64,000 nucleotides of DNA from an uncultured Gammaproteobacteria bacterium (GCA_964559705.1 CAZLGV010000001.1:447322-511321); one strand, 5' to 3'; positions 2,234-33,060 are shown, counted from the stretch's first letter. The notes: a model not told the origin generated them from the sequence alone. Translations and numbers: made by a program.

Positions 2234-2240
2234 AATTTTG

Positions 2241-3284
2241 ATGTTTCAACCTTCATTTACAATAACCAACAAAATCTTAAACAGTATTGCCAAAATAGAG
2301 GCCGCAGAGGAAACAATTAGGCACGCTCCACTTCTGCCTCTCTGGGAGAAGCAATTTCAAGAGGACGCCGTTGTCAGATCTGTTTATCACGGAACTCACA
2401 TAGAAGGAAACCTGCTTCATAAAGACGATGCAAAAAATTTATTGCTGGGAAAAGACGTGCTTGGCAGACCAAGGGATATTCAAGAGGTGATAAATTATAG
2501 GAAAGTAGTTGATTTTATAGATGATGAAGCAAAAAAACACATCGATAAAATAACTGAACAGCTTATCAAAAAACTCCATCGCATTATAACAGAAAAAATA
2601 ATGCCGTCAGAGCAAGCTGGAGAGTACAGAACAAAACAAGTGGTCATAAAAAATTCCCAAACTGGAGAAATCACTTTTAAACCACCCCCACCAATGGAAA
2701 TTCCTTTCTTAATGAGAGAATTTACCTATTGGATAAATCGACAAGGAAAAGAGGATCTACATCCCCTCTTAAAAGCAGGAATAGCTCATTATGAGCTGGT
2801 CCATATTCATCCTTTCTTTGATGGTAACGGACGAGTTGCCAGAGCCTTAGCAACCTTAATTTTATTTCTTGACGGCTATGATATTAGAAGGTTTTTTTCC
2901 TTTGAGGAATATTATGATAAGGATGCTGTCATCTATTATGAACATCTGCAAAAAGCCTCAGCCGGGAACTTAACCTCCTGGCTTGAGTATTTTACCTATG
3001 GAGCAGCTATAGAGTTTGATAAAGTTAGAGAAAAAGTATTAAGACTATCTAAGGATGCCAAACTAAAAGAAAGATTTGGAGGCAGACAAATTTTTTTAAC
3101 AGAGCGACAGGTAAAAATTATTGAATACATGCAAGAAGTAGGGCAATTACAGAATAAATTGTTCTCCACACTTTTCCCCGACGTTTCAGAAGATACAGTT
3201 TTGCGTGATATTCAAGAGCTTATCAAAAATAATCTTATTAAAAAAGTTGGCAGCACGAAAGCAGCCAGATATGTTTTAATTTAA
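2241..3284 (+). CDS. Fic family protein (AMPylase-type) with C-terminal winged-helix region
   Basis: Canonical Fic motif HPFFDGNGRVARA. N-terminal THIEGN resembles the inhibitory-helix ..xIEGN motif. The ORF track starts at TTG 2238, but ATG 2241 fits the promoter spacing. Confidence 0.85.
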   Translation: MFQPSFTITNKILNSIAKIEAAEETIRHAPLLPLWEKQFQEDAVVRSVYHGTHIEGNLLHKDDAKNLLLGKDVLGRPRDIQEVINYRKVVDFIDDEAKKHIDKITEQLIKKLHRIITEKIMPSEQAGEYRTKQVVIKNSQTGEITFKPPPPMEIPFLMREFTYWINRQGKEDLHPLLKAGIAHYELVHIHPFFDGNGRVARALATLILFLDGYDIRRFFSFEEYYDKDAVIYYEHLQKASAGNLTSWLEYFTYGAAIEFDKVREKVLRLSKDAKLKERFGGRQIFLTERQVKIIEYMQEVGQLQNKLFSTLFPDVSEDTVLRDIQELIKNNLIKKVGSTKAARYVLI

Positions 3285-3294
3285 AAACACAAAA

Positions 3295-3480
3295 ATGAGT
3301 AACTATTCCTGGGAAATTATCTATATAGGATTTCTTTTGCCAAGCCTTTTTTCAATAACCTTGATTATAGAGGGGATATATAAAATATATAAACATGAGG
3401 AAGGACTATTTACATTTTTAATGGGGGTTTTTTTTATAATAGGATTAGCCCTTTTTTATTTATTCTTGATTCCAAAATGA
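3295..3480 (+). CDS. Small two-TM membrane protein, unknown function
   Basis: 61 aa with two hydrophobic helices; ATGA overlap with the ligase start. Confidence 0.4.
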   Translation: MSNYSWEIIYIGFLLPSLFSITLIIEGIYKIYKHEEGLFTFLMGVFFIIGLALFYLFLIPK

Positions 3481-5264
3481 AATTTAAAGAACTATCACTG
3501 TATTTCAAAAAAGTAGAAGATACTGCTTCTAGACTTGAAATCACGCGTCTTCTTGCGGAACTTTTTAAAAAATTGACAGCGAAAGAGATAGATAAGACTA
3601 TGTATCTCCTTCAGGGACGGGTTGTTCCAATGTTTGATCCGGTGGAGTTTGGTTTTGCCGAGAAAATGGTTATCAGAAGTGCCGTTTCTGCCTTAAGCAT
3701 AGATAAAGATAAGTTTATAGGCGAATATGGAAAAATTGGAGATATTGGAAAAACTGTTGAGCGCTTTAAAAAAAGTTCAAAGCGGGATTTAGAAATAATT
3801 GAGGTTTTTAATGAGCTTTCGAGATTAGCAAACAGTGGGGGAAAGGGCTCACAAGAGATAAAAGTAACCATTCTTTCTAACCTAATTAGCCAATTGGATT
3901 CTTTATCTTGTCGTTATCTAGTCCGAATAGTCCTTGGAGTCATGCGACTTGGATTCTCCGATATGACTGTACTCGATTCGTTATCCTGGATGATTAAGAA
4001 TAATAAGAGCTTGCGGCCAGCAATTGAGGGAGCCTACCATGTGCGGCCAGACCTTGGTTTTTTGGCTAAATTTATAAAAGAGAATAATGGAAAGAAGCTT
4101 GATAGAATACAACCCAATCTTTTTACTCCAATTCTAATGATGAAAGCAGAAAGACTTTCATCTGCCCAAGACATATTAAAAAAAATTGGAGAATGCGCTG
4201 TCGAACCCAAATATGATGGATTTCGTCTCCAGGTCCACTATAAAAAAAATCCGCCAGCTGGCGGAGAAGCACGTTTATATTCGCGAAATCTTGAGGAAGT
4301 ATCAAGGATGTATCCGGATTTAATAGAGGCGGTAAAAAGGCAAGTTTCTGCAAAGGAAATAATTTTTGAAGGTGAGGCAATTGGTTTTGATCCCTACAGT
4401 GGAAACTTTCTTCCCTTCCAAGAAACAGTTCAGAGAAAAAGAAAGTACAGAATAGAAGAGATGGCCAAACAAATTCCCCTGAAACTTTTTACATTCGAAT
4501 TGCTTTATTTGAATGGAAAAAGTTATATTAACCAAGCTTTTTCGCAAAGGAGAAAACATCTAGCTAAAATCATTAAATCAAGTGGAGATGAGTTCAAAGA
4601 CATCATCTTAGTTTCCCAGGAAGAGATAATAAAAGATGAAAAAAAATTGGAAATTATGTTTGAGGAAGCTCTTTCAAAGGGATTGGAAGGAGTAGTGGCC
4701 AAGAAATTAACTGGAGTTTACCAGCCTGGAGCCAGAGGATGGAATTGGATAAAGTTCAAAAGAAGTTATTCTGCAAAAGTTGAGGATACGATAGATTGTT
4801 TGGTCATGGGTTACGATTTCGGGAGAGGAAAAAGAGCGGGGTTTGGCATAGGAGCATTTTTGGTCGGAGTTTACGACCAGAAAAAAGATAATTTTGTAAC
4901 TGTTGCAAAAATTGGTACTGGATTATCAGATCAAGAATGGAAACAATTAAAAGTTAAAAGTGAAAAGTTAAAAATTGAGAAAAAACCTGCGCTTTATAAT
5001 GTAGATAAACAAATGTATACAGATGTCTGGGTAAAGCCTGCCCTAGTGGTTGAGATTAAAGCTGATGAGATAACTCGCTCTCCGGTGCATACAGCAGGCA
5101 GAGTGATGAAAAAGTCAAAAAGTGGGTCTGCCCTTGATGTTGATACTCCAGGATTTGCTCTTAGATTTCCCCGACTTAAACATTTTAGAGATGATAGAAG
5201 ACCAGAAGATGCAACAACTCTTCGGGAAGTTGAAAAGATGTTTAAAGCTCAAGGAAAAAAATAG
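3477..5264 (+). CDS. lig: ATP-dependent DNA ligase, archaeal/eukaryotic Lig1-like three-domain type
   Basis: Adenylation motif I EPKYDGFR, EGEA, EGVVAK and WIKFK motifs. The 595-aa length includes an N-terminal DNA-binding domain. Confidence 0.9.
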   Translation: MKFKELSLYFKKVEDTASRLEITRLLAELFKKLTAKEIDKTMYLLQGRVVPMFDPVEFGFAEKMVIRSAVSALSIDKDKFIGEYGKIGDIGKTVERFKKSSKRDLEIIEVFNELSRLANSGGKGSQEIKVTILSNLISQLDSLSCRYLVRIVLGVMRLGFSDMTVLDSLSWMIKNNKSLRPAIEGAYHVRPDLGFLAKFIKENNGKKLDRIQPNLFTPILMMKAERLSSAQDILKKIGECAVEPKYDGFRLQVHYKKNPPAGGEARLYSRNLEEVSRMYPDLIEAVKRQVSAKEIIFEGEAIGFDPYSGNFLPFQETVQRKRKYRIEEMAKQIPLKLFTFELLYLNGKSYINQAFSQRRKHLAKIIKSSGDEFKDIILVSQEEIIKDEKKLEIMFEEALSKGLEGVVAKKLTGVYQPGARGWNWIKFKRSYSAKVEDTIDCLVMGYDFGRGKRAGFGIGAFLVGVYDQKKDNFVTVAKIGTGLSDQEWKQLKVKSEKLKIEKKPALYNVDKQMYTDVWVKPALVVEIKADEITRSPVHTAGRVMKKSKSGSALDVDTPGFALRFPRLKHFRDDRRPEDATTLREVEKMFKAQGKK

Positions 5265-5271
5265 AGCAATT

Positions 5272-6438
5272 CTACTTTTGAATCAGAGAAGAATATAATG
5301 ACTCGAGTTTTTTGATGGTGTTGACCATGGAATATTTTTTTGCCAATTTTAAAGACGCTTTTCTATACTGATTTTGTAATTTGGAAGAGTTGGCAATTGT
5401 CCTAAGGGCATTTGCAAATGCTTCTGTATTATCTGGTTGGCAAAGAATACCGTTTTTAGAAACCAACTCTGGAATACCTTTTGCCTTTACTCCGATGATT
5501 GGCAATCCAAATAATAGTGTTTCTAAAATACTAATTGGCTGATTTTCGCTGGTACTGGCTGTGACAAAAGCAATAGCGTCCTTTATAATGTTAGAGTTCA
5601 TCAATGTTTCATGTGGGATTTGACCCATAAATAATACGCGTTTATCTAATTTATACCCTTTTGTTAAAGCTTCTAGTTTTTCACGGGCTGGTCCATCGCC
5701 GACTATTACTAACATGTGTTTGTTATCACTTTGAAAAAACTTGTAAAAAGATTCTATGAGTTTATCGATATTTTTTTCAAAACTTATTCTGCCGATGAAG
5801 AGAAAGTAGGATTTTGCCAAAGGAAACTTTTTACTTGAATTTTTTTTTGAATTAGTTACATTGAATGAAACACCAACTGGGATTACTTTGATTGGCCGAG
5901 TTACACCATGAGTTAACAATTCTTTTTTGGCAAATTGTGATGGAGAAATAACAACATCGGCTGCGTTATAGAAAAGATTATTATAGAACCAGCCAATTTT
6001 ATTAACTGTAAGGTTAGTGTCAAGTCCTATTTTATCAAGCCCAACCACCCTTAAATATTCAGGTTCCATAAAATATGTATGAAATGTTCCAACCAGTGGA
6101 ATTTTTAATAATTTTGAAACCATTACTCCATTGCTTCCCACCGTGAAAGGAGTGTGGAAATGGATTATCTCAGCCTGAAATTCTCTGACCGTATTAAGAA
6201 CATCTAAAGATAACGGAAAAGTTATTCTAAAATCTTTGTAAATTGGATTTGGGACAGCCGGTAAATAATGTATTTTTATTGCAGATAGGGACGTTTTTTT
6301 AATAGCTGAAGCGGGTTTGGGCGCACATATAAGAATCTTATGACCTCTTTCTTTCAAGTTTTTTGTTGATTCTATAATGTGTGTAACTACACCATTGACC
6401 TGGGGTAAAAAAGAATCTGTAAATATCGCTAGTTTCAT
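5272..6438 (-). CDS. Glycosyltransferase family 4 (GT-B)
   Basis: N-terminal FTDSFLPQVNGV and C-terminal SENQPISILETLLFGLPIIG (EX7E-like) motifs. Confidence 0.8.
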   Translation of the reverse strand: MKLAIFTDSFLPQVNGVVTHIIESTKNLKERGHKILICAPKPASAIKKTSLSAIKIHYLPAVPNPIYKDFRITFPLSLDVLNTVREFQAEIIHFHTPFTVGSNGVMVSKLLKIPLVGTFHTYFMEPEYLRVVGLDKIGLDTNLTVNKIGWFYNNLFYNAADVVISPSQFAKKELLTHGVTRPIKVIPVGVSFNVTNSKKNSSKKFPLAKSYFLFIGRISFEKNIDKLIESFYKFFQSDNKHMLVIVGDGPAREKLEALTKGYKLDKRVLFMGQIPHETLMNSNIIKDAIAFVTASTSENQPISILETLLFGLPIIGVKAKGIPELVSKNGILCQPDNTEAFANALRTIANSSKLQNQYRKASLKLAKKYSMVNTIKKLESLYSSLIQK

Positions 6439-7562
6439 AATTTAGTCAAAATTTGAAAATAAAATTGTTCGGTTTTTCTTGCTGTTTCGTCCCAGTTATA
6501 CTTTCTGCTTTCTCTTAAACCCCAGTTCTTAAGCTTATCACGTAACTCCGCATCTTTTATAAGTTTTTTTAAAACATTGGCTAGAGCAAAATAATTTCTT
6601 GGTTTAACCAGTAATTCAGGCTGGGGATAGTTTTTTAATGATTCCTTAAAGGCCTCATTTTTAAAACCCACAACAGAACAACCACAAGCCAGTGCTTCCA
6701 AGACAGTCAAACCGTAACCTTCATCAACGTAGGGCGCGCAGAAGATATCGGCTTGTTGGTAATGCCGTCTTTTTACAAGATCTGAAACTGAGCCAACGAA
6801 CTTAACATTCTGGTTGAGTCCAGATTCAATAACAAAGTTTTCAAACTTCTTCCTCTCATTGCCATCACCAACAATGACCAATTTAATTTTGGGAAACTCC
6901 TTGACTAGAATTTCCATTGCCTTTAAAAGATAGATAAGTCCCTTTTTAGAAATAAGCCTAGCCAGAAAAAGAATTTTTATATTACCGTCTGCCTTATTAT
7001 TTTCTTCCGGAAAATATAGTGCATGGTCCAAACCGTTTAATATTGTTTTTTGTGGAACTCTTCTATCACAGAGTCTAATAAACCTTTTTTTAGTTATTTC
7101 TGAAACATAGATTGCTCCATTAATATAGGAAGAAAATTGTTTTTTAAAAAAAGGAAAGATCAAATTGAGAACATTGCCTACAGAATTATTATCCCAGGAA
7201 ACATGGAAGGTAACGATTTTGGGAATGTTAACATTTTTCAATAATTCCCAGGATATAAAAGGAGCAAGAGGTTCTTCTATATGGCAGATATCAAAATTTC
7301 CTTTATTTATTATTTCCGAAGGCTTTCTACCGTTTGGCCAGAAATTTATATCTGCCCATTCTCCATTTGGCATAGGAACGTTTATTGATTTGCCAATTGA
7401 ACGATAACTACGATAGCGCTTTGTATTAGCTGCTCCAAAAATTGTAATTTTATGCCCAAGCTTGTTTAATGCATTTGATAAATAATAAACATGCTCTTGT
7501 ACACCTCCATGAGTCGATGGATTAGAAGATAAAAACATAGCAATCCTTAAACGTTTTTTCAT
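6435..7562 (-). CDS. Glycosyltransferase family 4 (GT-B)
   Basis: HGGVQEHV near the N-terminus and EGYGLTVLEALACGCSVVG. 4-nt overlap with the downstream GT4. Confidence 0.8.
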   Translation of the reverse strand: MKKRLRIAMFLSSNPSTHGGVQEHVYYLSNALNKLGHKITIFGAANTKRYRSYRSIGKSINVPMPNGEWADINFWPNGRKPSEIINKGNFDICHIEEPLAPFISWELLKNVNIPKIVTFHVSWDNNSVGNVLNLIFPFFKKQFSSYINGAIYVSEITKKRFIRLCDRRVPQKTILNGLDHALYFPEENNKADGNIKILFLARLISKKGLIYLLKAMEILVKEFPKIKLVIVGDGNERKKFENFVIESGLNQNVKFVGSVSDLVKRRHYQQADIFCAPYVDEGYGLTVLEALACGCSVVGFKNEAFKESLKNYPQPELLVKPRNYFALANVLKKLIKDAELRDKLKNWGLRESRKYNWDETARKTEQFYFQILTKL

Positions 7563-13943: not shown

Positions 13944-14424
13944 AGTTAAGCTCATTCAGACTGAAGCGGAAGACCTTCTTAAAAAAATTATTGGCAAGCC
14001 AGAACTCGAAGTAAGCGAAGATAGTGGTGTTTATCATATTGTGATCAAGACAGAGGATGACGCTCCTGTTGTTATCGGTCGTCACGGAGAAACAATAAAA
14101 GCAATTCAAAAGATTCTCGAAGTCGTTCTTTATAAAAAACTTGGCGAGTCAGTTGAGATTTTGGTCAATGTTAATGATTATCGAGAAAAACAAAAGGAAA
14201 GACTGGAGCAGCTGGCAGATAAATTTGCCCAAAAAACTAAAGACTTAAGGAACTCTTCTTATATAAAAGGACTTTCATCTTATGAGCGAAAATTGGTGCA
14301 TGAGTATATAGTTGCGAATTATCCCGAGTTGACATCATATTCAACAGGCGAAGGCAAAGACAGACGCCTAGTTATTGACCTTAAGGAAAATGCACCCCAA
14401 ACTGCAGACGAAAACTCTGAGTAA
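13936..14424 (+). CDS. jag: Jag/KhpB-like KH + R3H RNA-binding protein
   Basis: KH-like VVIGRHGETIKAIQ and R3H-like LSSYERKLVHEYI. Canonical position after yidC. Confidence 0.75.
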   Translation: MDKVKLIQTEAEDLLKKIIGKPELEVSEDSGVYHIVIKTEDDAPVVIGRHGETIKAIQKILEVVLYKKLGESVEILVNVNDYREKQKERLEQLADKFAQKTKDLRNSSYIKGLSSYERKLVHEYIVANYPELTSYSTGEGKDRRLVIDLKENAPQTADENSE

Positions 14425-14610
14425 GTTCTTAATAATTTTTTTACCTGCGATCATTGTCTTTGATTTGATTTATTACTTTTATACCCGTTCCTCTTGCTTA
14501 AACTGCGGTGGTGTGGTAGAATTCTTCAAAACTTCATCATTATCTACTTTCATAATTTACAGTAGTCTAAAGAACTTCAAAAAATAAACCCAATCTTGAT
14601 AAAAGTTTGA

Positions 14611-14619
14611 TGCTATACT
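14611..14619 (+). promoter_or_regulatory. Extended -10 promoter TGcTATACT, 6 nt upstream of the giant ORF ATG
   Basis: gaTGcTATACTgaaaatATGgcc; no SD. Confidence 0.5.
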
Positions 14620-14625
14620 GAAAAT

Positions 14626-17600
14626 ATGGCCGACGGACTTAATGAAACGCCACGACAGGGCGATAGCGAATACAGAGCCGCTCGTGAGCCGGATGCGGTA
14701 AGAGAGGCAGTGGAGGAGGTTGACAGAAGAATTGAAGAAACAGAAGCTAATCCACAGCAAAGAGAACGATTGGAACAAGAACTAAGAGATGAATTGACCC
14801 GGCTTGAGGCTTTGGCAATTGAGGTCGGAGCTGCAGCAGAAAGAAATGTACAGGCTCCTGGGACTGTGCCGGAAAATAAAAAAGAAGAGGCGCAGAAGAT
14901 ACAAGTTTCTGTTGCCAAAGTACTACGGGCAGTTGAAAAAGGAGTGATCAAGCCGCCTGAAAAATCACAAGCAGTACTTTCTCGTTTAGCCAGACAAGAC
15001 CTCAGTGCCCAAGCTTCAACCAGTCTTTATAATTTTGTTACAAAATATCTAAGAGAAGATATTGCAGTTTCTCAACCTGGTCAATCCCAGACAAGTTTTG
15101 AGCAGGCACTTGACACTTTAAGAGCCAGAGACCCTGGTGCAGCAGCAGCAGTCAGGAGCGCTTTAATTGCTGAGGCGGCAACACTTGGACTTACTTCAGA
15201 GCAAGCTAGCCAAAAATTTGCGGGCGAAGTTAGAGAACAACCAGCAGAAACAAGGACCAGACCGCAAACCATGGTCGAAACCTTACGCCAGAGAGGAGTG
15301 GATATTCCGGAAGATGTCTTTGCCGAAGATTATTATGAGCGAGGAATGGTCAGGGAGTTTTTTAAAGAACCACAAGATTATAGAGTATGGCGTGCGCTTT
15401 TGAATATCGAAGACACAGTTGACCCGCAAACAGGGAGAGTTACTGATAGAGGCTTCAGAAGCTATGTGAATGAAACCAGAGAAGAAATAAGTGCAAAATA
15501 TCCAGGTGATGAACAAAAAATCCGTAAAGAAACCAGTGAGAAAATTACTCGTGATGTTGTTCGGCTATTTACCAGACTTTATGAAACCTTGGATAATCAA
15601 CATCCGGAAAAACTATATGAGGAGATTGAGAGAGAAGGTTATTCTGCCTCGATTGAGGTAGCCAAAGGAATTTTTGCCAGAAGACTAATCAGGCTAACCA
15701 ACAGTCTAGTATCTGATGAAAACTATGAGCAGTGGAAAAACTTTTTCTATAGAGAAGTTTCAATAGCAGACGTAAATGTCAGAGAGGTTCAGAAACAATT
15801 CCCAGATAAAAAAGAGCCGCTTACCCAATATGTTATTGAGGGAAAGGTAGTTCCTCTTCTTGATATAGAAATGTCTGACGCGCCAGATTTCATAAGAAGT
15901 ATACTGGTTCATGTCCGAACAACTGAAGGATTGATGAAATATACCCATAATGTCAATGCGCTTTTTCACCGCAGAGGATCCGCAGATCAGGGCTTTTGGG
16001 GCCAAATTGCTAAATATTCAGAGGAGTTTACTACAGGTTCTATTGACGAGCTGATGGTTCTGCCTGACGGCTGGTTGATCATGGAGGCACACAATTTATA
16101 TCGAAAATATCTTGAAGAAGAGCTTGTCAAGTCGAACTGGATGCATCAGCCACAGTTACTTACTGCCAGACGAGGAAATTTCGTTAATGAAATACAAAGA
16201 ATGGTTTTTGAGGATCTTAAGAGAATGTATGCTTCGGAATTTGGCGATACTCCTGATGAACAGCGTAAAGAAGAGTGGAGGGTGAGAAGAGCAGTTGGAG
16301 TTGCTCTTGGTTTATCCAGAGGAGTATTTTTGAGTGAGGTGGAACCGGCTGCCTGGGCAGATCCATTACTTGATCCTCTTACCGGCGACCCGACACACAT
16401 AAGCTATGGTACCAACGAAGCAGATCCTTATACAGCTTTTAATCCTCAACATCATTTTTTGCGCTGGCAACATGAGACTCATAAAAAAGGAGCCCTACTT
16501 TTTGCCCTGACCAATTTTGACCGAAAAAAACACCGTTTTTGGGATCACTACAAGGCTTTTGAGGAAATGAAGAAGTATCGTGAGACTTTTTATAGAGGAT
16601 CAGATTGGTTGAGAAGAAAAGATCCTGATGAACGCAGATTCTATGAGATTTTGCCTGGTTTAACCCGAGTCGGAAGCCTGCTTTTTAGAGGAGCTTGGAG
16701 ACTGAATGCGTATGACTATTGGATGGTCAAATATCCAGGAGTTGAAGGCACTGGTTCTCTGGCTGGTCAAAAAGACTTATTGAGTTGCTTTAAGGCTTTG
16801 GAAAATATTGGTTATGATGTCACATTCCATTTTAGCGAGGGTGACATTTTGGGCAATTGGAATTTTTTATTAGATAAAGATCCCGCAGTTGCAGCCGAAC
16901 GCCAAAAGCTTTTTGAATATGTTTACAACAAATATATACGCGATCCGCAGGGCAGAACTGGACAGTCCTTGGATGATTATTTACGCCAGATTCGACCAAG
17001 AGTAGAAGAGAAAGTAGATCGACTTATCAAGAGAGGAGATCTGGATAAAAGTGCGCGCCAAGACTGGATTATTGTTGAATCATATAAAACTTTAATGTAT
17101 AGGGGGTTAGCAGGACTGCTTCTGCAGCATGTGCCAACCAAACTTATCAAACTTGAGAGAAACAGACTAGCTGAAGATGGTGTGCGAGCCTGGGATAAAG
17201 TTAGGCAGCGCTTAGGCTGGGGAAATACGGCGGAAGGACTTACCAGAATGGACGTTGCCATGCGAAATCTTTCCATGGTTGAGAGTTTACTGCGAAGAAA
17301 GATGAGTAAGGCGATGAGGGAACACGTCGAGAGACAAGGCATGCGAAAATCACTCCACGACTTTGATTCCCAGACCAACAGGTTTGTGGTCACAGAGGAT
17401 TTAATCAGAGAAGAGTTGGCCAGAATGGGTATAGAGAGCGCTGATGTAATATCACTTTTTAGAACTATACACAATTTTGTTTTGGAAGGAAATCTTACAG
17501 AAACATTTATTGATAAATTTGCTGGCAAGTTGATAAAGAATGAGAAGATTAGAGTAGGCTATGACAGCCAAGGCCGCGGTGAAGACATAAACGAATTTAG

Positions 17601-18324
17601 AGATTTCTTTCCGATGCAGATTGGAAATGACGATATAGATAATACATTTCTTAACTGGAGTAACACCGGAGCTGGAGCTCTTAACCGAGCCGTCAGAGAG
17701 GTGGCCGAGGCAGAAATGCAGGTTTTCACACCCCTAAAAGAATTGTGGGACGCCTTGCCACAGGTGGCTATTGACCCCAATCGAGATATTTCGCCTTTGA
17801 TCAAGCCTCTTAAAGTTATGCATGAGCACCTACAGTCTATTCATGACAAATTATATGCTATAAAAGTCATGGACCAGGTGGCCTCTGGAATAATTGCTTA
17901 TTTTAGAAAAGATACCATTGCCAAAGTTTTTCCTTTCAGATTTGCCAGATTTGGTAAAGTTAACTCTATTGCCGCAGAGTTGGTTGGACCGTTTAAGGGA
18001 GTTTGGGAATGGGAGGCAAAAGATATCCACAATTTTCTGGTTGAACTGCAAAGGCAGGAACTTGTTCCGCACTATCCACGAGAGCTTTGGCAAAAAGCTC
18101 CGGATGTAAAAGCTCGACCCAGACTTTTTGGTCTGTTTAGACCTAGAGTTGAATATCATCCAGCTACCAAATACTATGCCCGAAATCTGGCAGATCGGGC
18201 TGGTGCACGCTGGTGGCACCTTGGCTGGGAATACATTAATAAATATTTGCCATTGATAATTGGCTATCTTCTCTGGCAAGCTTTATCTAAGGCATTTAAA
18301 GAAGAGTATGAAGGACAGAGATAA
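14626..18324 (+). CDS. 1232-aa orphan protein, apparently tail-anchored, no recognised domain
   Basis: Single uninterrupted ORF. Acidic/Ala-rich N-terminus and a single hydrophobic helix YLPLIIGYLLWQALSKAF about 10 aa from the C-terminus. I found no Walker A or HExxH and only one Cys. Confidence 0.7.
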   Translation: MADGLNETPRQGDSEYRAAREPDAVREAVEEVDRRIEETEANPQQRERLEQELRDELTRLEALAIEVGAAAERNVQAPGTVPENKKEEAQKIQVSVAKVLRAVEKGVIKPPEKSQAVLSRLARQDLSAQASTSLYNFVTKYLREDIAVSQPGQSQTSFEQALDTLRARDPGAAAAVRSALIAEAATLGLTSEQASQKFAGEVREQPAETRTRPQTMVETLRQRGVDIPEDVFAEDYYERGMVREFFKEPQDYRVWRALLNIEDTVDPQTGRVTDRGFRSYVNETREEISAKYPGDEQKIRKETSEKITRDVVRLFTRLYETLDNQHPEKLYEEIEREGYSASIEVAKGIFARRLIRLTNSLVSDENYEQWKNFFYREVSIADVNVREVQKQFPDKKEPLTQYVIEGKVVPLLDIEMSDAPDFIRSILVHVRTTEGLMKYTHNVNALFHRRGSADQGFWGQIAKYSEEFTTGSIDELMVLPDGWLIMEAHNLYRKYLEEELVKSNWMHQPQLLTARRGNFVNEIQRMVFEDLKRMYASEFGDTPDEQRKEEWRVRRAVGVALGLSRGVFLSEVEPAAWADPLLDPLTGDPTHISYGTNEADPYTAFNPQHHFLRWQHETHKKGALLFALTNFDRKKHRFWDHYKAFEEMKKYRETFYRGSDWLRRKDPDERRFYEILPGLTRVGSLLFRGAWRLNAYDYWMVKYPGVEGTGSLAGQKDLLSCFKALENIGYDVTFHFSEGDILGNWNFLLDKDPAVAAERQKLFEYVYNKYIRDPQGRTGQSLDDYLRQIRPRVEEKVDRLIKRGDLDKSARQDWIIVESYKTLMYRGLAGLLLQHVPTKLIKLERNRLAEDGVRAWDKVRQRLGWGNTAEGLTRMDVAMRNLSMVESLLRRKMSKAMREHVERQGMRKSLHDFDSQTNRFVVTEDLIREELARMGIESADVISLFRTIHNFVLEGNLTETFIDKFAGKLIKNEKIRVGYDSQGRGEDINEFRDFFPMQIGNDDIDNTFLNWSNTGAGALNRAVREVAEAEMQVFTPLKELWDALPQVAIDPNRDISPLIKPLKVMHEHLQSIHDKLYAIKVMDQVASGIIAYFRKDTIAKVFPFRFARFGKVNSIAAELVGPFKGVWEWEAKDIHNFLVELQRQELVPHYPRELWQKAPDVKARPRLFGLFRPRVEYHPATKYYARNLADRAGARWWHLGWEYINKYLPLIIGYLLWQALSKAFKEEYEGQR

Positions 18325-18340
18325 AATAGATTATTAATTT

Positions 18341-18349
18341 TGGTATGAT
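18341..18349 (+). promoter_or_regulatory. Extended -10 promoter TGgTATGAT, 6 nt upstream of ATG 18356
   Basis: ttTGgTATGATcaagatATG. Confidence 0.45.
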
Positions 18350-18355
18350 CAAGAT

Positions 18356-19108
18356 ATGAAGCGTTGGCTTTTCTTTTTTGTCAGTGCCTTAATTTTTTTA
18401 TATGCTTTTTTGCCTAAAGTACATGCTGCAGATACTCCCTCGGTTAACGCAATAGGCGGAGAAGGAGATGTAGCCGGCTTAAACTGCGGAGTAGCCAAAG
18501 AAGGAGGAGGATTAGATAGATGTTGCAGTACCCAACCCAGAAGCTTACCCGATATTCCGCTTTCAGGACTGTTGAGCCATCTTCCATTTGTCGGTTCAAT
18601 AATTGATCAGTATGTTAAAGCAGATGAAAATATGGAAGAACTTCAAAGAGAAAGTCTGACTGCCTGTATTTCTGGAGAGCCAACAAGCGATCCAACTGAC
18701 CCAAGTTGCCGCTGTGAACTTTCGGCTGATGCAGGAGCAATCCCTCCAATTGCAGACCTCTGCCAAAAATATATAACTGATCCAGATGAGCTTAGAAAAT
18801 GCAATGATTGTACTGGGCCCAGCAAGGGAGGATTTTACAGTGGTTTTGGCTGCGTACCTCTGACCCTACAAGGCTTTGTCTCGAACTTTTTACTTTCAAT
18901 TGGAGTAAACGTGGCCTTTGTGGTAGCTCTTCTTTGTATTATTTATTCTGCTTTTATGCTCCAGACATCGCAGGGGAATCCGGAAAGGCTAAAAAAAGCC
19001 AGAGAATATCTAACTTCTTGTATTGTCGGTCTGGTATTAATACTCTTCTCGGTATTTCTGTTAAGACTGATTGGAGTGAGTATTCTGGGAATACCAGGGC
19101 TTATATAG
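18356..19108 (+). CDS. Secreted Cys-rich protein with a C-terminal TrbC/VirB2-like pilin module
   Basis: Signal peptide ...LPKVHA/AD, 10 Cys in the ectodomain, and a C-terminal two-helix module with QTSQGNPERLKKAREYLTSCIVG. Confidence 0.65.
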   Translation: MKRWLFFFVSALIFLYAFLPKVHAADTPSVNAIGGEGDVAGLNCGVAKEGGGLDRCCSTQPRSLPDIPLSGLLSHLPFVGSIIDQYVKADENMEELQRESLTACISGEPTSDPTDPSCRCELSADAGAIPPIADLCQKYITDPDELRKCNDCTGPSKGGFYSGFGCVPLTLQGFVSNFLLSIGVNVAFVVALLCIIYSAFMLQTSQGNPERLKKAREYLTSCIVGLVLILFSVFLLRLIGVSILGIPGLI

Positions 19109-20816
19109 TATATTGGCCTGAGGCTGGACTACTTCCGCTACCTCCTTTAGGCGGCTTAGGTTTTCCTCTATTTGCTAACCAGTCTCTGACCATATTTATA
19201 CCATGCTGGGCATAGAAAAGGCCACTAAACTGACTCATACTACCCATGACTCCTTTTGTAGCTCCAGTGATTCCGGTAAAGAAGACCGAGGGGCTAACTC
19301 CCAGATCCAGAGGCTTAGGAAGGATGGCTTTTTTAACTGTTTGAACCAGATTTGGCGCAGCAAATAAGAACCACATAGCAATCACAATTGAAAAATTTCC
19401 CGGATCGATACCGTACAAGAAGGGTAGACGGATAAATTCTCCAGAGGAAGACCCTCCGAGATTAAAAATAATTAAAGCGAAAATGAAAACAGTAATAACC
19501 AGAGGAAAAGTTAAAAGCTCGTTGATTAGACTTTTAAACCAGCTGGGCAGGGCCGCTTTGCCTGGGAAGAGCTCGCGCAAAAGATAAACAGGTGCGGTGA
19601 TAATCAGAAGTATTATTTTAATATAGGCAGAAAGCAGAAGAATCAGAATTCGAAAAAAAATAAAAACAATAGAGATGAAAAAAATAACTCCCAGCAGGAA
19701 AGGGATAATAATGAAAATGCCAATAGCCGCAGCCACAGGAATTAAAAGGCGATATATACCTCCCTGAACTATCCCGTTAACAAAACCATGCAAGGCAGCA
19801 CTAACTCCTCCTAAACTGAAACCAAATATTGATGGTTTGGCTTCAGCTCCCGCTTCTACACGCACAACCTTTTCCACCCATCCAAATTTTTGAGCAAGCT
19901 TAAGATAGATAAAAAAATATCCAATCAGCGCGCCTATGATATTTTTAATCACCGCAATAGGGCCAAGTAGATTTAGCATGGCATTAGGAAAAGTCCAAAA
20001 TAAATTGATAAAACTGAATTTTGCCAGACTAGAAAAAATATCCGATGGTCTAGCCTGTATATAGCGAGCCTGAAGAGAGTTTATATCCAGCCCGCCGGCT
20101 TGGCCCAGAATGAAAATAATAAGAACAATAAATACGTACATAAGGTCGATCAGAAAACCAGCGATAGCAAAAGAAAAAGTGATAAAAATAAGCGAAACAA
20201 CTATCCGGGGAATTGTATTTTCAATCGAAATAACTGTTTGGGGATTTATTTTGACCCTAAACATGATTAGAAATCCAAAGGTGATCAGAACTATAACCAG
20301 AAAAACATAGGCAACATTTCTAATACCTGTCCAAACGTCAGCTAAAGGTTTGATTGAGGCAAAACCTATTCCTTCGACGGCATAAGTTTTGGGAATAAAT
20401 CCTGCCCGTTGAAGACTCTGTTGAGCCCAATATACGCCTGATGCAGGTGGATTAAAGTAAGGAAACATGAGTAAATTTACTCCTTTGCCGATAAGACTGT
20501 TGTCAAAATTTATATTTCCATCCTGCGGATTATCGGTGCAGGCTTCACCCAAAAGTCCGCACATGGTTGCCCGATAAAGAAGGATAACTTGTTTTCCTTC
20601 TTTGGTTTTGTTCAGTTCTGGGTCTTTGATGACTTTGTAAATTTCATCTCTGTTCCTTTTGATCGGATCGACAGTTGCCTTTGGCTTATCGCGATTGATG
20701 AAATAGGCAAAAAGCCCAAAGACGATAAAATAAACTGCGAGAACAAGAAAAATCTTATTGGCAATTTTAAAACCCTTTTTAATATAGGTTTTCAAAAAAG
20801 CAAACATCAATTTCAT
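19101..20816 (-). CDS. Polytopic membrane protein (about 10 TM), possibly VirB6/TrbL-like
   Basis: N-terminal TM, an approximately 130-aa loop with Cys (CGLLGEAC), then many TM helices. The VirB6-like call rests only on topology and context. The start may be M4 (20807). Confidence 0.55.
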   Translation of the reverse strand: MKLMFAFLKTYIKKGFKIANKIFLVLAVYFIVFGLFAYFINRDKPKATVDPIKRNRDEIYKVIKDPELNKTKEGKQVILLYRATMCGLLGEACTDNPQDGNINFDNSLIGKGVNLLMFPYFNPPASGVYWAQQSLQRAGFIPKTYAVEGIGFASIKPLADVWTGIRNVAYVFLVIVLITFGFLIMFRVKINPQTVISIENTIPRIVVSLIFITFSFAIAGFLIDLMYVFIVLIIFILGQAGGLDINSLQARYIQARPSDIFSSLAKFSFINLFWTFPNAMLNLLGPIAVIKNIIGALIGYFFIYLKLAQKFGWVEKVVRVEAGAEAKPSIFGFSLGGVSAALHGFVNGIVQGGIYRLLIPVAAAIGIFIIIPFLLGVIFFISIVFIFFRILILLLSAYIKIILLIITAPVYLLRELFPGKAALPSWFKSLINELLTFPLVITVFIFALIIFNLGGSSSGEFIRLPFLYGIDPGNFSIVIAMWFLFAAPNLVQTVKKAILPKPLDLGVSPSVFFTGITGATKGVMGSMSQFSGLFYAQHGINMVRDWLANRGKPKPPKGGSGSSPASGQYTI

Positions 20817-20856: not shown

Positions 20857-22095
20857 TTAGCAATTAGGTGCATGGTAAGGACCTTTGGGTAGATTAATAT
20901 CGATATGGAAATGATTATCATGCCCCTCAATGCATTTCATCTGTTCCAAGGATAATTTATTAGCCCGAGCATAACTGATCACAGCGCTGTTAACCGCGCT
21001 ATCACAGTACCAAATATTTTTAATCAGATTAGTATCAACGAACATTTTCCCAAGTTGAATAGTTGCCTCCCGGCTATAGCTACCTTTGGTATAGTCGGCT
21101 GCTCTGGGATTACAACAAGCATCAACATCAACAGCAATCCCTCCATTGTGAGTTTTATGCGGAGAGCCAGCATTTATATCACCTATCCAAAGTTCAGAAT
21201 CTTTCTGGGCCTCGGCATATCTTAAAGCAGTAGTGTAGAGGACTCCGACTAATTCTTTTTTTCCATAACCTCGGGCCGAGCAGTGATAAAGAGTATATTC
21301 TCCTTTTGGCGCAACAGGCATTTTATAATAACCCAGTGAATTTGGGCTGCCTAAATTTGGAGGATAGAGAAGTCCCTCATAGGAGGGTAAAGGTCCTGTA
21401 TCAGGTGCTTGGGTCGGACCAGGTGTAAGTCCTCCAATATCAAAAGAAAATAAAGCGTCAAAAATATTTGTAATTCTCTCAACTTCTTTATCCTGTGGAG
21501 TTTTACCTTTTTCTCCTTCCTTCAGGAATTCGCTTTTTTCTTGTTCTATATAATCACTTCCAGGATGTTCCAGGTCGTCGACAATATCATTTTTCGAGTC
21601 TTCTATAGCCTGGTCGATTACAGGATTTTGACTAACCACTATAATTTCTGATCCTCCTTCATAAAGATCCAAAAGATTATTTTCTCGAAGATAGTCCTTT
21701 AATTTATCATAACCTTGAGGAGTTTTTAAAGAAATAAAAAGCTGGTTTAACTCCGTAGAATACTTAATATCGAAATCTTCAGAGGAATAAGGTAGTTTTT
21801 CTTTGAATTTATTTATATTTTCCAATTGTTGTGCAGTTAAAGCATTGTCGGTTTCTTCGGCCAGCTCTTTCAGCTTTTTTCTTTTTTCTTCAGTAGTCAA
21901 GCTTCGAGTCTGGTTTAAGAATTGCTTATCTGTTCCGCTCGTTGTGCGTTGTTCAAAGGAGCCAGTTGGACTAGGAATCTGTTTTTGATCTTCTTTGATT
22001 CTTCCTAGCATCTGGGTCAGAAATATTGTGACAGCAATTAGAAAAACCAAAACAGCAGCCGCAATCAAGATAAATTTATTAGCTAGTTTATTCAT
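20857..22095 (-). CDS. Membrane-anchored cell-wall peptidase, LAS/M15-like zinc hydrolase domain
   Basis: N-terminal TM. C-terminal THNGGIAVDVD fits the xHxxGxAxD motif, and GHDNHFHIDI fits HxH. The N-terminal approximately 215 aa are paralogous to the upstream ORF. Confidence 0.6.
   Translation of the reverse strand: MNKLANKFILIAAAVLVFLIAVTIFLTQMLGRIKEDQKQIPSPTGSFEQRTTSGTDKQFLNQTRSLTTEEKRKKLKELAEETDNALTAQQLENINKFKEKLPYSSEDFDIKYSTELNQLFISLKTPQGYDKLKDYLRENNLLDLYEGGSEIIVVSQNPVIDQAIEDSKNDIVDDLEHPGSDYIEQEKSEFLKEGEKGKTPQDKEVERITNIFDALFSFDIGGLTPGPTQAPDTGPLPSYEGLLYPPNLGSPNSLGYYKMPVAPKGEYTLYHCSARGYGKKELVGVLYTTALRYAEAQKDSELWIGDINAGSPHKTHNGGIAVDVDACCNPRAADYTKGSYSREATIQLGKMFVDTNLIKNIWYCDSAVNSAVISYARANKLSLEQMKCIEGHDNHFHIDINLPKGPYHAPNC
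21433..21492. repeat. 60-nt segment 57/60 identical to 22635-22694
   Basis: tccaatatcaaaagaaaataaagcgtcaaaaatatttgt... encodes the shared peptide DKEVERITNIFDALFSFDIG (minus strand). Confidence 0.9.
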
Positions 22096-23255
22096 TTATT
22101 TTTAGAATAATAATCCCAGACCCTCTGAAAATAACTTTGGGTTGATGAGGGAATACTGTTTGGGTATCGGCTGCAACCAGCATTGTAACAAACGACGGCC
22201 CTTCGTACATGCTCATAGTTCCAATCAAGACCAAAGGCTAAACTATCCAGTTTTAATTTTTTGGCTGCGGCATATACACTGTCTAGAATATTTTCAATAT
22301 AAGGCTTACGTGTATATCCTCCAATAGTATTGACTGCATTTGCGTAACCAGTCCAAGTTGTGGGTAAAAATTGCATTGGTCCACTGGCTCCAATTCCATT
22401 TCGAAAACAGGGATGCGAAGGTGGAATCCCCTTGCCTGCCTGCGAGTACTCAGCTATCTTTGGCCCAGTCAGATCAAATATAAATCCACATTCAATACTC
22501 ATCACAGCATGGAGTATTGATGGAGGAGTCTTAGCTTTTAGTCCAGCTTCGTTAAAAATACTCTCCAAGGAGGAGAGATCTGCACTGGGTATATTATCAA
22601 TTGTTCCTCCTGGTGGTGTTCCTTCTGATATTTCTCCAATATCAAAAGAAAATAAAGCGTCAAAAATATTTGTGATCCGCTCAACTTCTTTATCGGGTTT
22701 TGACTCTTTCTCTTTCTGTTCTTGCTGATATTGTTGTTCTATTTTTTCTCGCTCTTCTTCTTTTTGCTCAAATATTTTTTCTTCATCTTGATTAATTGCT
22801 TGATCGACAGGTTTGTCGGTAGTTACAAACAGGTCCTCAAATTCTTGACTTATCTCGAAAAGTCCGTTGTCTTTTAGGAATTGGTCAATTTTTTCATTGG
22901 CTTGTGGTGTTTTTTTGCGCATATAGAATTTACCTAGGTAATCAGAATAGCCCATATCAAAATCATCAGAGGTATAGGGCAATTTTTCCTTGAATTTATT
23001 AATTATTTCTTCCTGTTGGGGTGAAAAATACTTCAATGCTTTTGCTTGCTCTTCTAATTTTTCTTCTTCTTCCGGCCTTAGAGTAGGAGACCGTCTGCTA
23101 TCTGTGCCTACAGGCTCATAGCTACCAGTTGGAAGAGGAATTTTTTTTAACGCCTCCTCTTTTTTTCTAAAAAAGCTTTGGAGGAGTAGAGTCAGAAAAA
23201 TAAGAATAACTAAGGCTCCAACAGCCAGTGCAATAAGTTTGTTTTGTGTTGACAT
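22092..23255 (-). CDS. Membrane-anchored lytic transglycosylase (SLT, family 1)
   Basis: N-terminal TM. C-terminal motifs MSIECGF (catalytic Glu), GASGPMQF and CYNAG. ATGA overlap with the downstream paralog. Confidence 0.7.
   Translation of the reverse strand: MSTQNKLIALAVGALVILIFLTLLLQSFFRKKEEALKKIPLPTGSYEPVGTDSRRSPTLRPEEEEKLEEQAKALKYFSPQQEEIINKFKEKLPYTSDDFDMGYSDYLGKFYMRKKTPQANEKIDQFLKDNGLFEISQEFEDLFVTTDKPVDQAINQDEEKIFEQKEEEREKIEQQYQQEQKEKESKPDKEVERITNIFDALFSFDIGEISEGTPPGGTIDNIPSADLSSLESIFNEAGLKAKTPPSILHAVMSIECGFIFDLTGPKIAEYSQAGKGIPPSHPCFRNGIGASGPMQFLPTTWTGYANAVNTIGGYTRKPYIENILDSVYAAAKKLKLDSLAFGLDWNYEHVRRAVVCYNAGCSRYPNSIPSSTQSYFQRVWDYYSKNK
22635..22694. repeat. 60-nt segment 57/60 identical to 21433-21492
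   Basis: Direct comparison of the two stretches shows 3 mismatches. Confidence 0.9.
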
Positions 23256-26414: not shown

Positions 26415-26726
26415 ATGAGATATCTAGCACAAACAATTAATATAAATGGCAGGATCATTACAGGACCATTGAAAGGAATAAATAATCTGAGTGATGTTAT
26501 AAACATAATTGTAAAAAACTTAATATTAATTGCTGGAGTTATTTTATTTCTCATTTTGATTATAGGAGGTTACGGATTCATCACTTCCGCAGGCAATCCT
26601 GAAAAATTGAAATCCGCCAGAGCAAAAATATCAACAGGAATAATAGGTTTTGTTCTGCTGATCGTGTCGTATCTAATTGTTAAACTTATTTCAGTTATCT
26701 TTGGTCTGGGAGAGGGTATTTTTTAG
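26415..26726 (+). CDS. Small two-helix membrane protein, TrbC/VirB2-like (T4SS-pilin-like) paralog
   Basis: ITSAGNPEKLKSARAKISTGIIGF between two hydrophobic helices. It starts 1 nt after the preceding stop. Confidence 0.6.
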   Translation: MRYLAQTININGRIITGPLKGINNLSDVINIIVKNLILIAGVILFLILIIGGYGFITSAGNPEKLKSARAKISTGIIGFVLLIVSYLIVKLISVIFGLGEGIF

Positions 26727-31246: not shown

Positions 31247-31333
31247 GGAGAGGTGCCAGAGCGGTTGAATGGGCTGGTTTCGAAAACCAGTATGACTGCA
31301 AGGTCATCGTGGGTTCAAATCCCACCCTCTCCG
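31247..31333 (+). tRNA. tRNA-Ser (anticodon CGA), long variable arm, CCA not encoded
   Basis: Acceptor GGAGAGG/CCTCTCC; anticodon stem-loop CTGGT-TTCGAAA-ACCAG; variable arm TATGACTGCAAGGTCATCG; T-loop GGTTCAAATCC. The layout closely parallels E. coli tRNA-Ser(CGA). Confidence 0.9.
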
Positions 31334-32491
31334 CAATAGTTTTGTTGCGAAATCTACTTTGCCCTCATCAAGTAGGGGATAAATTCTTTTGGCTTTCTCA
31401 ATTTTTTTATCTTCAGAAAAAAGCGTAGGTTGTTGTATTTGAGAGTCTTCAAGATCAGAAATTGTGCAGCCGGTAGTCCGATAGACAAGCTCTGGATTAT
31501 AGACTTTTGCAAAGGCTTCCCTAAGTTCTTCTCTAATGATCAGAGGTAAATTAGTTTTTTGGTTAAGTTTGATTTCCACTGTTTGGTATTTAAATTGCTG
31601 GGTTTTTAAATAGATATGAATTTTTCCAACTTGGTATTGATAGCGGCGGGCCGTTTCGAAAGCATCTTCAACATGGTGAAGTAACTGCGACCACAAAAAA
31701 TCCTTATTTTTTGTTGGCGGAGTAAATGTTTGGGATCTAGTTATGGATTTATATGTTTCTTTAGGATTAGTATCTAATTCGTAGACTTTTTCTCCTCGAA
31801 GTTCTCGCCAGATCTCAAAAAAAGGTTTAGTTAAATTTTTTCTAATAAACTCCTCCTTTTTTAAAGCAAAATCAAGAGCTGATTTTACTCCCAGTTTTTT
31901 AAGATAAGAAGATGTATTTTCTCCAACACCCCAAACTTCTTCTATTTTTGTTGATTGAAGAAACTTTTCTATGCTTAAGCCGTCGATAAGCGTTAATCCA
32001 GAAGGTCTTTTGAAAGACGAAGCTACTTTGGAGAGTGTTTTGGTTAAGGAAATTCCAATCGAAACAGTTATATTTAGAGAATTTTCTATTTTATCCTTCA
32101 ATTCTTGTCCGATCTGCCGATAGCTCATCTTAAGGGGTCTTCTTAGACCCTTGAGATCGGCAAAACCTTCATCTATTGAATATTCTTCAACCGCAGGAGA
32201 AAACAGATCTAAAATTTGGAAGATTTTTTTGGAAAAAAGACTGTAAAGCTCATAGTCAGAATTGATAACTTTGCATTGGGGAAATTTCTTTCTGATCTCA
32301 AAAACAGGCATGGCTCTGGTTATACCTAACTTTTTTGCTTCTTGGGACATTGATGTGGCTACTCCTCGTTCTGCACCAGTTACAACAGGTTTTCCTTTAT
32401 AGCCGGGATTTAGAGCTTGAAAAACAGACACGAAGAAAGAATCTCCATCAAGGTGCAGAATTACGTTTGGCCACTTACGGACTTGAAACAT
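31304..32491 (-). CDS. dinB: DNA polymerase IV (Y-family)
   Basis: ILHLDGDSFFVSV and IDEGFADL motifs. The last 30 nt are antisense to tRNA-Ser. Confidence 0.85.
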   Translation of the reverse strand: MFQVRKWPNVILHLDGDSFFVSVFQALNPGYKGKPVVTGAERGVATSMSQEAKKLGITRAMPVFEIRKKFPQCKVINSDYELYSLFSKKIFQILDLFSPAVEEYSIDEGFADLKGLRRPLKMSYRQIGQELKDKIENSLNITVSIGISLTKTLSKVASSFKRPSGLTLIDGLSIEKFLQSTKIEEVWGVGENTSSYLKKLGVKSALDFALKKEEFIRKNLTKPFFEIWRELRGEKVYELDTNPKETYKSITRSQTFTPPTKNKDFLWSQLLHHVEDAFETARRYQYQVGKIHIYLKTQQFKYQTVEIKLNQKTNLPLIIREELREAFAKVYNPELVYRTTGCTISDLEDSQIQQPTLFSEDKKIEKAKRIYPLLDEGKVDFATKLLRRGWDLNPR

Positions 32492-33060
32492 TAATTACGC
32501 AACTTTCGTACCACCGCTTTAACGATTCCGAAGATTCGAAGCTCGGAACTTGGATAAAAAGGTGGATATTTGGGGTTTGCTGCTTCCAAATAGATAGATT
32601 TTTCGCTGTCTTTTTTGAGAATTTTAAGAGTCCACTCTCTATCGATTTCTGCCAGAACTATATCTCCAGGCAACGCGTCTTTTCTTCTCTCGACAACTAC
32701 AACGTCGCCTTCATAGATCCCAACTCCTATCAGAGAGTCCCCTTTGACTGTAAAAAGAAAAGAAGATATAGGGTCGCCTATCAAATACTCATCCAAAGTA
32801 AGATATTTTCTGTCCTCATCGGCAATGATTGGAAATCCGGCAGGAACAGTTCCCAAGAGGGGCAGAGCAAAGAATTTATCGGTTGGAGCAAGTTTATTAT
32901 TCATCTTCTTAATAAAGCCTTCTTCAATAAACTTTTGCACCAGTCTAAATATTGATTTTTTTGAGCGAAAACCAAACAAAGCTAGCATTTCAGAGTAAGA
33001 AGGTAAACGACGATTTTTTCGGTAGAATTTTTTAAGTTGGGATAGAAAATCGTTTCTCAT
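32491..33060 (-). CDS. lexA: LexA-like SOS repressor (S24 peptidase)
   Basis: N-terminal wHTH, cleavage-site-like VPAGFP, catalytic GDSL Ser and a downstream Lys (TLKILKK). The stop overlaps the dinB ATG (TAATG). Confidence 0.8.
   Translation of the reverse strand: MRNDFLSQLKKFYRKNRRLPSYSEMLALFGFRSKKSIFRLVQKFIEEGFIKKMNNKLAPTDKFFALPLLGTVPAGFPIIADEDRKYLTLDEYLIGDPISSFLFTVKGDSLIGVGIYEGDVVVVERRKDALPGDIVLAEIDREWTLKILKKDSEKSIYLEAANPKYPPFYPSSELRIFGIVKAVVRKLRN

Follow-up and report, generated by a model that had tools for sequence, protein, structure and literature searches.

A large protein family with a predicted C-terminal anchor is encoded beside VirB2-like pilin and tentatively VirB6-like genes in Microgenomates

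What is a protein of more than 1200 residues that matches no described family, and what might it do beside the gene for a pilin like those of type IV secretion systems (T4SS)? The question is raised by an open reading frame (ORF), labelled BIG here, in a 64,000-nucleotide stretch of an uncultured bacterium (GCA_964559705.1, CAZLGV010000001.1:447322-511321), which we call the window throughout. A previous description made from the DNA alone, hereafter the sequence-only reading, had presented BIG as a tail-anchored orphan of atypical composition. In this study, we show that BIG is a genuine large protein belonging to an undescribed, vertically inherited and lineage-restricted family of Roizmanbacteria-type Microgenomates, ultrasmall bacteria of the Candidate Phyla Radiation (CPR). 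Moreover, its gene is robustly locked to that of a VirB2-like pilin and, tentatively, to that of a VirB6-like membrane protein. From this gene context we favour, as a tentative reading, that BIG is a cytoplasmic-face, membrane-anchored subunit of a pilus module derived from type IV secretion.

An exhaustive HMMER search of 1.84 billion representatives returned 174 homologous clusters at E<=1e-3 (121 at E<=1e-30), nearly all of them 1150-1300 aa long and aligned with BIG from end to end, so that BIG is not the orphan it was taken for. None of the family members carries a database name. The aligned members are 20-44% identical to BIG, and alignments of 65-106 members contain the invariant residues G729 and P837 together with about 40 that are nearly invariant. 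These clusters, the near-invariant columns at such low identity and a confident AlphaFold2 (AF2) model indicate that BIG is real and, as far as alignments can tell, under selection. A scan of GTDB species genomes with the eight sequences closest to BIG gave 12 loci, and the titles that were informative named the Microgenomates group and Candidatus Roizmanbacteria. The family is visible only by exhaustive HMMER; a word-indexed search found BIG itself and one 1310-aa relative that is 42% identical, and still two sequences when it was fed the family alignment. At one locus (L022), a positional orthologue of 1354 aa (3460-7524, minus strand), which ends ...YGP-hydrophobic-KNKKK as BIG does, escaped both tblastn and hmmsearch at its default settings, with the bias filter on, and came up only with hmmsearch --max (E 1.5e-20, in six colinear pieces), despite neighbours that are 43-65% identical to their window counterparts. 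Standard searches therefore underestimate the size of the family.

A spurious or decaying ORF, or foreign DNA acquired recently, could be suspected from a local G+C that lies 0.069 above the remainder of the window and from a protein that is nameless in the databases. This notion is refuted by the length-conserved clusters, by a confident model based on co-evolution and by conserved synteny, and it is further opposed by G+C at the third codon position (GC3) within the range of the window and by a tblastn search of plasmids and phages that gave no match; we give it practically no credence. Synteny, GC3 and the tblastn result are also the grounds on which BIG as foreign DNA is rejected. The composition itself had been called atypical, of which the raised G+C stands (0.429 vs 0.360 in the remainder of the window); the 14-20 kb interval (14001-20000), which spans BIG, the pilin gene and the VirB6-like gene, is the G+C maximum of the window, with z about 2. 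The excess falls mainly at codon position 1 (0.556) and is driven by E/A/R/D/G/V codons; jag, fusA and clpB have 0.525-0.552 at the same position. GC3 is 0.354, inside the window range of 0.244-0.359 and near its top. Because GC3 is within range and the excess sits at codon position 1, BIG is not foreign-looking, and its composition represents the high end of normal, mostly driven by amino-acid content. BIG exceeds its flanks in G+C by a mean of +0.012 across 12 orthologous loci, compared with +0.069 in the window copy. The pile-up of antisense ORFs had also been remarked upon, and five of at least 80 aa do run across BIG, the longest of 183 aa. However, codon shuffles of BIG give similar ORFs (mean 2.6, longest 118+-36, with 183 reached in 4%). 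The pile-up is only mildly over this expectation, and composition accounts for most of it; we therefore reject antisense genes as its explanation.

The genomic context of BIG provides the lead to its function. In the window the order is DUF2298 (minus strand), a class I aminoacyl-tRNA synthetase (valS), yidC, jag, BIG and a 250-aa pilin of the PF18895 (T4SS_pilin) family, followed by a 571-aa polytopic membrane protein, a 412-aa M74-like and a 387-aa SLT-like protein (all three on the minus strand), clpB, a 103-aa T4SS_pilin and recF. The sequence-only reading had proposed a search for CPR relatives with conserved neighbours, and these were found: a PF18895 pilin homologue adjoins BIG in 18/18 informative loci, and the polytopic membrane protein does so in 17/17. 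The linkage is kept through rearrangements, the pilin gene being inverted in L002 and placed upstream of BIG in L015. Given that BIG directly follows yidC and jag in most loci, it might be an elongation or division scaffold that works with yidC-jag (KhpB/EloR), its adjacency to the pilin gene being coincidental. However, the trio of BIG, pilin and membrane protein also occurs in other wider contexts that lack yidC and jag, namely L016 (Big_5 ... GT4, Na_Ca_ex) and L021 (NUDIX, Peptidase_S11, aspS), which argues against plain inherited synteny with yidC-jag, and BIG has a promoter of its own after a 200-nt spacer. We regard the scaffold explanation as highly improbable. As an observation apart, a gene of ~146-163 aa without a Pfam match adjoins the VirB6-like gene in L015, L018/L019, L020, L021 and L022; at the matching position the window lacks a distinct gene of such length. 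Should these genes prove to be related to one another, they could represent a further member of the module.

The two partners differ in how they were recognised. The 250-aa pilin scores 27.4 bits against PF18895 (cut-off 26.6), which together with its signal peptide and two C-terminal hydrophobic helices places it among the VirB2/T4SS_pilin proteins, and it matches more weakly to TrbC/VirB2 (E 0.023) and to NF045849 (E 2e-5), the 'Mbov_0395 pilin-like conjugal transfer protein' family of mycoplasma integrative and conjugative elements. The 571-aa protein has more than 811 unnamed homologues, from Roizmanbacteria wherever a source is named, and gave no match even at E<=5 against Pfam and NCBIfam, including PF04610 and the T4SS VirB6 models. 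When its AF2 model, built from database homologues (pLDDT 80.8, pTM 0.70), was compared with the PDB by Foldseek, only 17 matches were obtained, and five of the six best were to Legionella DotA or to chains of the R388 entries 7o3v and 8rtd. The R388 chains of 260-268 residues are ones that we take to be TrwI/VirB6. All five matches are weak (E 0.19-1.2, probability 0.44-0.69, target-normalised TM 0.27-0.39), and the sixth is to a 222-residue chain of 8rtd whose identity was not checked (E 4.1). Each match is weak, but the set is specific, and we tentatively consider the modelled partner VirB6-like. In a survey of CPR T4SS loci, hidden Markov models (HMMs) find VirB6 homologues scarce and VirB2 arrays abundant in Microgenomates (Quinonero-Coronel et al., bioRxiv 10.1101/2025.01.22.634366), and a VirB6-like partner that profiles miss fits this reported scarcity.

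BIG itself offers few familiar features. The absence of a recognisable catalytic or binding motif, asserted from the start, was borne out: Walker A, HExxH and similar motifs show no conservation in the family (4-5 of 89 members), and Pfam, NCBIfam, PHROGs and PADLOC gave no match, the best Pfam hit (E 0.051) falling on the low-complexity N-terminus. Pfam searches of six long or divergent members likewise yielded nothing credible, and PDB sequence searches with BIG alone and with the 89-sequence profile returned only noise from the low-complexity N-terminal region. The absence of a PADLOC match and the fixed position in the core genome led us to reject BIG as a defence system. No internal repeats were detected, as had also been claimed; self-BLAST gives the identity match only, and five segments compared pairwise by hhalign reach a probability of <=1.1%. 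AF2 modelled residues 201-1232 with 65 homologues (mean pLDDT 87.3, pTM 0.89) as one compact, mainly alpha-helical body, with low pLDDT at the start of the model and beta-hairpin inserts near aa 374-417 and 973-990. We looked with Foldseek for a solved fold at E<=1e-3 or TM>0.5, and the whole model gave nothing at E<=1e-3 in the PDB or BFVD; the best matches have TM about 0.1 in the PDB (E 0.046) and 0.06 in BFVD (E 0.0034). The predicted fold thus appears to resemble no solved structure in the PDB and no predicted viral fold in BFVD, and neither there nor in Pfam or NCBIfam is there a characterised family to which BIG could be assigned. Two outcomes that the sequence-only reading had named as refuting it, a match to a characterised family and a spurious ORF, were therefore not observed. 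Negative-strand RNA virus polymerases (PB1, L) recurred among the Foldseek matches at a probability of <=0.25. They were rejected because a beta-sheet palm is missing from the conserved region and no GDD/SDD motif is conserved; the family has no conserved acidic triad either.

The best-conserved part of the protein is a loop-rich block at aa 441-700, in which H441, D474, LPD479-481, K494, E573, D579, S593, R613, H641, R688, W691 and R692 are near-invariant. Conservation and model together make this block a candidate ligand-binding or catalytic pocket. An alternative that we consider unlikely places BIG in envelope biogenesis, as a membrane-associated enzyme or binding protein that might act on lipid-linked or pilin precursors at the inner membrane face; a metabolic or regulatory tie, and not a structural one, would then connect it with the pilin and VirB6-like genes. 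The near-invariant polar residues (H441, D474, D481, K494, E573, D579, S593, R613, H641, R688, R692, Y770 and others), concentrated as they are in a confidently modelled loop-rich block, speak for such an enzyme, as do the glycosyltransferase, DUF2298 and peptidoglycan-hydrolase genes nearby. However, no known catalytic motif or fold emerged from Pfam, NCBIfam, PDB sequence search or Foldseek, and the sequence as a whole turns over rapidly.

The two ends of BIG bear on its location. The N-terminus (MADGLNETPRQGD) is acidic and shows no signal peptide, and the first 250 residues hold 13.6% Ala, 13.6% Glu and 10% Arg with a net charge of -11; this agrees with the sequence-only reading, as do the exact count of one Cys in 1232 aa and the richness in Arg (9.1%), Trp (2.0%) and Tyr (3.7%). 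In typical members this N-terminal region measures 63-260 aa; it grows to about 660 aa in P0091 and P0103, where Pfam found no match. Cys is nearly absent across the family (median 1 per roughly 1200 aa), unlike in the Cys-rich ectodomain of the pilin next door, and its scarcity is weakly consistent with a cytoplasmic body. At the other end lies the helix YLPLIIGYLLWQALSKAF, for which tail-anchor topology had been claimed. Within it, YLPLIIGYLLWQALS (aa 1207-1221, nt 18244-18288) forms the hydrophobic core, after which the tail is charged; the family consensus reads KY(L/G)P, a hydrophobic run and then WKxIxxAxKExEGKKK, with Pro at 1209 nearly invariant. The window copy has a modest hydropathy (KD17 1.29); in the family the best 17-residue hydropathy (KD17) window of the last 60 aa has a median of 1.72 and reaches 1.6 or more in 61/89 members, and a second segment of KD17 >=1.6 occurs elsewhere in only 6/89. 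We looked for tail anchors as hydrophobic segments within about 50 residues of the C-terminus, and BIG has a single one, with neither a signal peptide nor another transmembrane segment. Judging from the alignment, family members characteristically end in a hydrophobic anchor with a basic tail behind it, and this much of the claim stands. Transmembrane topology of the anchor is unproven because the uncharged run is short (11-22 residues, median 15), a length that suits a short tail anchor or else an interfacial one.

BIG shows the lowest identity to its orthologues among the proteins of its neighbourhood (Table 1) and is thus its fastest-evolving gene. This very fast divergence relative to every neighbour, along with the hypervariable N-terminal region and a conserved C-terminal block that is moderately hydrophobic and has a basic end (...GKKK), would suit a translocated substrate or effector of the adjacent T4SS-like machine, exported by virtue of a C-terminal signal and thereafter held by its tail in the membrane of the host bacterium that carries the CPR cell. 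The signals of T4SS substrates are C-terminal and often positively charged, and exported membrane-protein effectors tend toward transmembrane segments of lower hydrophobicity. Fast divergence and a stretch of moderate hydrophobicity close to the C-terminus are features that BIG shares with those effectors of type III and type IV secretion systems that bear transmembrane segments, but BIG is a fixed core gene whose export is hypothetical. Moreover, all the loci examined have BIG as a single copy at a fixed position, which resembles a core component more than an accessory effector; the size and the compact fold of BIG are conserved, and translocating 1200 compact residues would need unfolding; and there is no coupling protein or VirB4 nearby. 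An exported effector is therefore unlikely in our estimation.

Because BIG always lies beside T4SS-like pilin and channel genes, it is probably a lineage-specific part of a cell-surface machine. In the reading that we favour, BIG would be made in the cytoplasm, as the lack of a signal peptide and the near absence of Cys suggest, and would be tethered post-translationally to the cytoplasmic membrane by its C-terminal hydrophobic helix. In bacteria, YidC assists the post-translational insertion of C-tail-anchored proteins such as TssL. The helical body of about 1000 residues and the variable acidic N-terminal arm would then face the cytoplasm, and BIG would act as the cytoplasmic-face subunit of a T4SS-derived pilus or stalk module. 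It might be a platform, regulator or enzyme that docks on, or acts at, the VirB6-like site of pilin assembly, with the polar loop-rich block as its binding or catalytic pocket. In their R388 T4SS structure of 2022, Mace and colleagues reportedly proposed VirB6 as the site at which the VirB2 pilus is assembled. Several points weigh against this interpretation. Firstly, the role is read from the gene neighbourhood alone, and since most loci come from one broad lineage, the conserved adjacency could partly be inherited synteny. Secondly, the VirB6 assignment of the modelled partner is weak (Foldseek E 0.19-1.2, TM 0.27-0.39) and has no HMM support. Thirdly, the 64-kb window encodes none of VirB4, VirD4, VirB3 and VirB8; a complete T4SS encodes VirB4 with other components, and with no VirB4 among the window ORFs such a system is not demonstrated. 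Furthermore, BIG evolves faster (22-32% identity) than its partners (30-46%) and is barely detectable in L022, which is unusual for a core structural subunit, and the uncharged run of the anchor is short for a membrane-spanning helix.

Among known systems, TssL and DotU (IcmH) come nearest in topology; these subunits of type VI and type IVB secretion machines are C-tail-anchored in the inner membrane, measure about 200-260 aa and have a small helical fold. Like them, BIG would be cytoplasmic in its bulk, has a single C-terminal hydrophobic helix, is encoded in a secretion cluster and would be inserted post-translationally. However, at about 1200 aa and with no sequence or structural similarity to them, BIG does not belong to their family. 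The genes for VirB4, TrsD, VirD4 and VirB11, large proteins that are cytoplasmic or membrane-associated, likewise neighbour those for VirB2 and VirB6, but BIG has no Walker A/B motifs (4/89 chance matches), no AAA/P-loop Pfam match and no structural match, and neither the P-loop motifs nor the fold of a T4SS ATPase was found in it by Pfam, NCBIfam and Foldseek. The CPR survey describes MPF-FATA-like T4SS loci with PF18895 pilins, often as arrays in Microgenomates, lying near rpmH, rnpA and replication genes; relaxases are missing from them, which points to a role outside conjugation (Quinonero-Coronel et al., bioRxiv 10.1101/2025.01.22.634366). That survey is centred on virB4 neighbourhoods, whereas the BIG module has no virB4 within 64 kb, and a tail-anchored protein of about 1200 aa is not described in the text available (10.1101/2025.01.22.634366). 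We would best class the BIG module as a variant within the MPF-FATA-like T4SS repertoire of CPR bacteria, with a protein family of its own that is undescribed. The Pam pilus system (bioRxiv 10.64898/2026.03.03.709456) was considered and rejected as different, its Ig-like donor-strand pilins lying in another gene context.

The expression signals of BIG conform to those of its genome. The extended -10 box pointed out in the sequence-only reading is present (Table 1), no Shine-Dalgarno (SD) sequence precedes the gene, and a box only 6 nt from the ATG implies that the mRNA may be leaderless or nearly so. At least 8/16 orthologous loci keep a TGnTAnnAT box that ends some 6 nt short of the ATG. The pilin gene has one of its own (TGgTATGAT, ending 6 nt before its ATG), as do many first-in-operon genes at 4-8 nt before their starts, and SD-like tetramers occur in only 4/50 genes of the window. 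The pattern is therefore not specific to BIG and suggests that leaderless mRNAs may be widespread in this genome; it is seen window-wide, for example at 1530, 2238, 14626, 18356, 33162, 51867 and 55756. A looser TAnnnT criterion takes in 19/50 genes, some of which may be chance matches in this AT-rich DNA. Inside the 200 nt that separate jag from BIG, some 100 nt upstream of the BIG start, lies a possible second promoter (TTGCTT, 17-nt spacer, TGgTAGAAT; 14494-14522, plus strand), whose -35 hexamer matches at only 3/6 positions.

Table 1. Position of BIG, its regions and the genes around it in the window, with the identity of the encoded proteins to their orthologues
Feature	Position (nt)	Strand	Size or residues	Description	Identity to orthologues
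BIG gene	14626..18324	+	1232 aa	Member of an undescribed Roizmanbacteria/Microgenomates family	22-32%
Extended -10 box TGcTATACT	14611..14619	+		Ends 6 nt before the BIG ATG	
BIG N-terminal region	14626..15261	+	roughly aa 1-212	Variable, acidic, Ala/Glu/Arg-rich; predicted helical or disordered	
BIG body	15262..18210	+	roughly aa 213-1195	Single, compact, mainly alpha-helical (AF2)	
BIG conserved block	15946..16725	+	aa 441-700	Best-conserved, loop-rich; modelled confidently with little regular secondary structure	
BIG terminal helix	18211..18321	+	36 residues, aa 1196-1231 (AF2)	Conserved hydrophobic anchor	
Pilin, partner 1	18356..19108	+	250 aa	VirB2-like; signal peptide, Cys-rich ectodomain, two C-terminal hydrophobic helices	30-46%
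Polytopic membrane protein, partner 2	19101..20816	-	571 aa	Tentatively VirB6-like; convergent with BIG and the pilin gene	32-42% (full length)
M74/LAS-like protein	20857-22095	-	412 aa	Putative peptidoglycan hydrolase	
SLT-like protein	22092-23255	-	387 aa	Putative peptidoglycan hydrolase	
Second VirB2-like pilin	26415..26726	+	103 aa	Between clpB and recF	
Class I aminoacyl-tRNA synthetase (valS)					47-59%
DUF2298					53-59%
YidC					56-70%
Jag					55-79%
ClpB					62-77%

Beyond the trio, the M74-like and SLT-like genes overlap by 4 nt and encode proteins that share a paralogous N-terminal half (about 220 aa) and differ in their putative hydrolase C-terminal domains. As their Pfam matches are just below the gathering cut-offs (24.3 vs 25 and 21.1 vs 21.3), and PDB sequence searches with the two proteins found nothing, they are only tentatively suggested to have a VirB1-like role. 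The second pilin, of 103 aa, matches PF18895 (E 1.1e-7) and NF045849 (E 1.2e-8), and its gene is kept at the corresponding place in L003, L013, L015 and L020. Elsewhere the window encodes an ATP-dependent DNA ligase of the archaeal/eukaryotic type, a diphosphomevalonate decarboxylase-like protein, a Fic-HTH protein, a umuD/dinB-like pair (Peptidase_S24 and IMS) and CAP-domain and lamin-tail-domain proteins (collectively at 3477-5264, 61-873, 2238-3284, 31304-33060 and 45101-47490), a content that is notable for a small CPR genome. The only tRNA gene of the window, tRNA-Ser(CGA) at 31247-31334 (plus strand), overlaps the 3' end of the IMS/dinB-like ORF (31304-32491, minus strand) by about 31 nt.

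CPR bacteria depend on host cells, and in the only CPR lineage tested, Saccharibacteria, T4SS-like genes are essential. In Microgenomates, standard profiles miss VirB6 and other core T4SS parts. The confident model and the family alignment of BIG now allow a new protein family to be defined. If BIG were only a lineage-specific accessory, it would be one more large CPR 'hypothetical', and the value of its description would lie mainly in annotation. A bolder and rather doubtful proposal is that BIG founds a structurally new class, either as a giant C-tail-anchored cytoplasmic subunit that has no NTPase motif and replaces the ATPases at the base of a VirB2/VirB6-type pilus, or as a protein delivered into and anchored in the membrane of a host bacterium. 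If this were true, in either form, the module would represent an unrecognised, minimal, CPR-specific derivative of the T4SS that serves an epibiotic lifestyle. The compact, conserved trio, in which an anchored protein of apparently novel fold is joined by a pilin of the VirB2 type and by a partner tentatively likened to VirB6, may be the missing pilus-assembly core of the Microgenomates.

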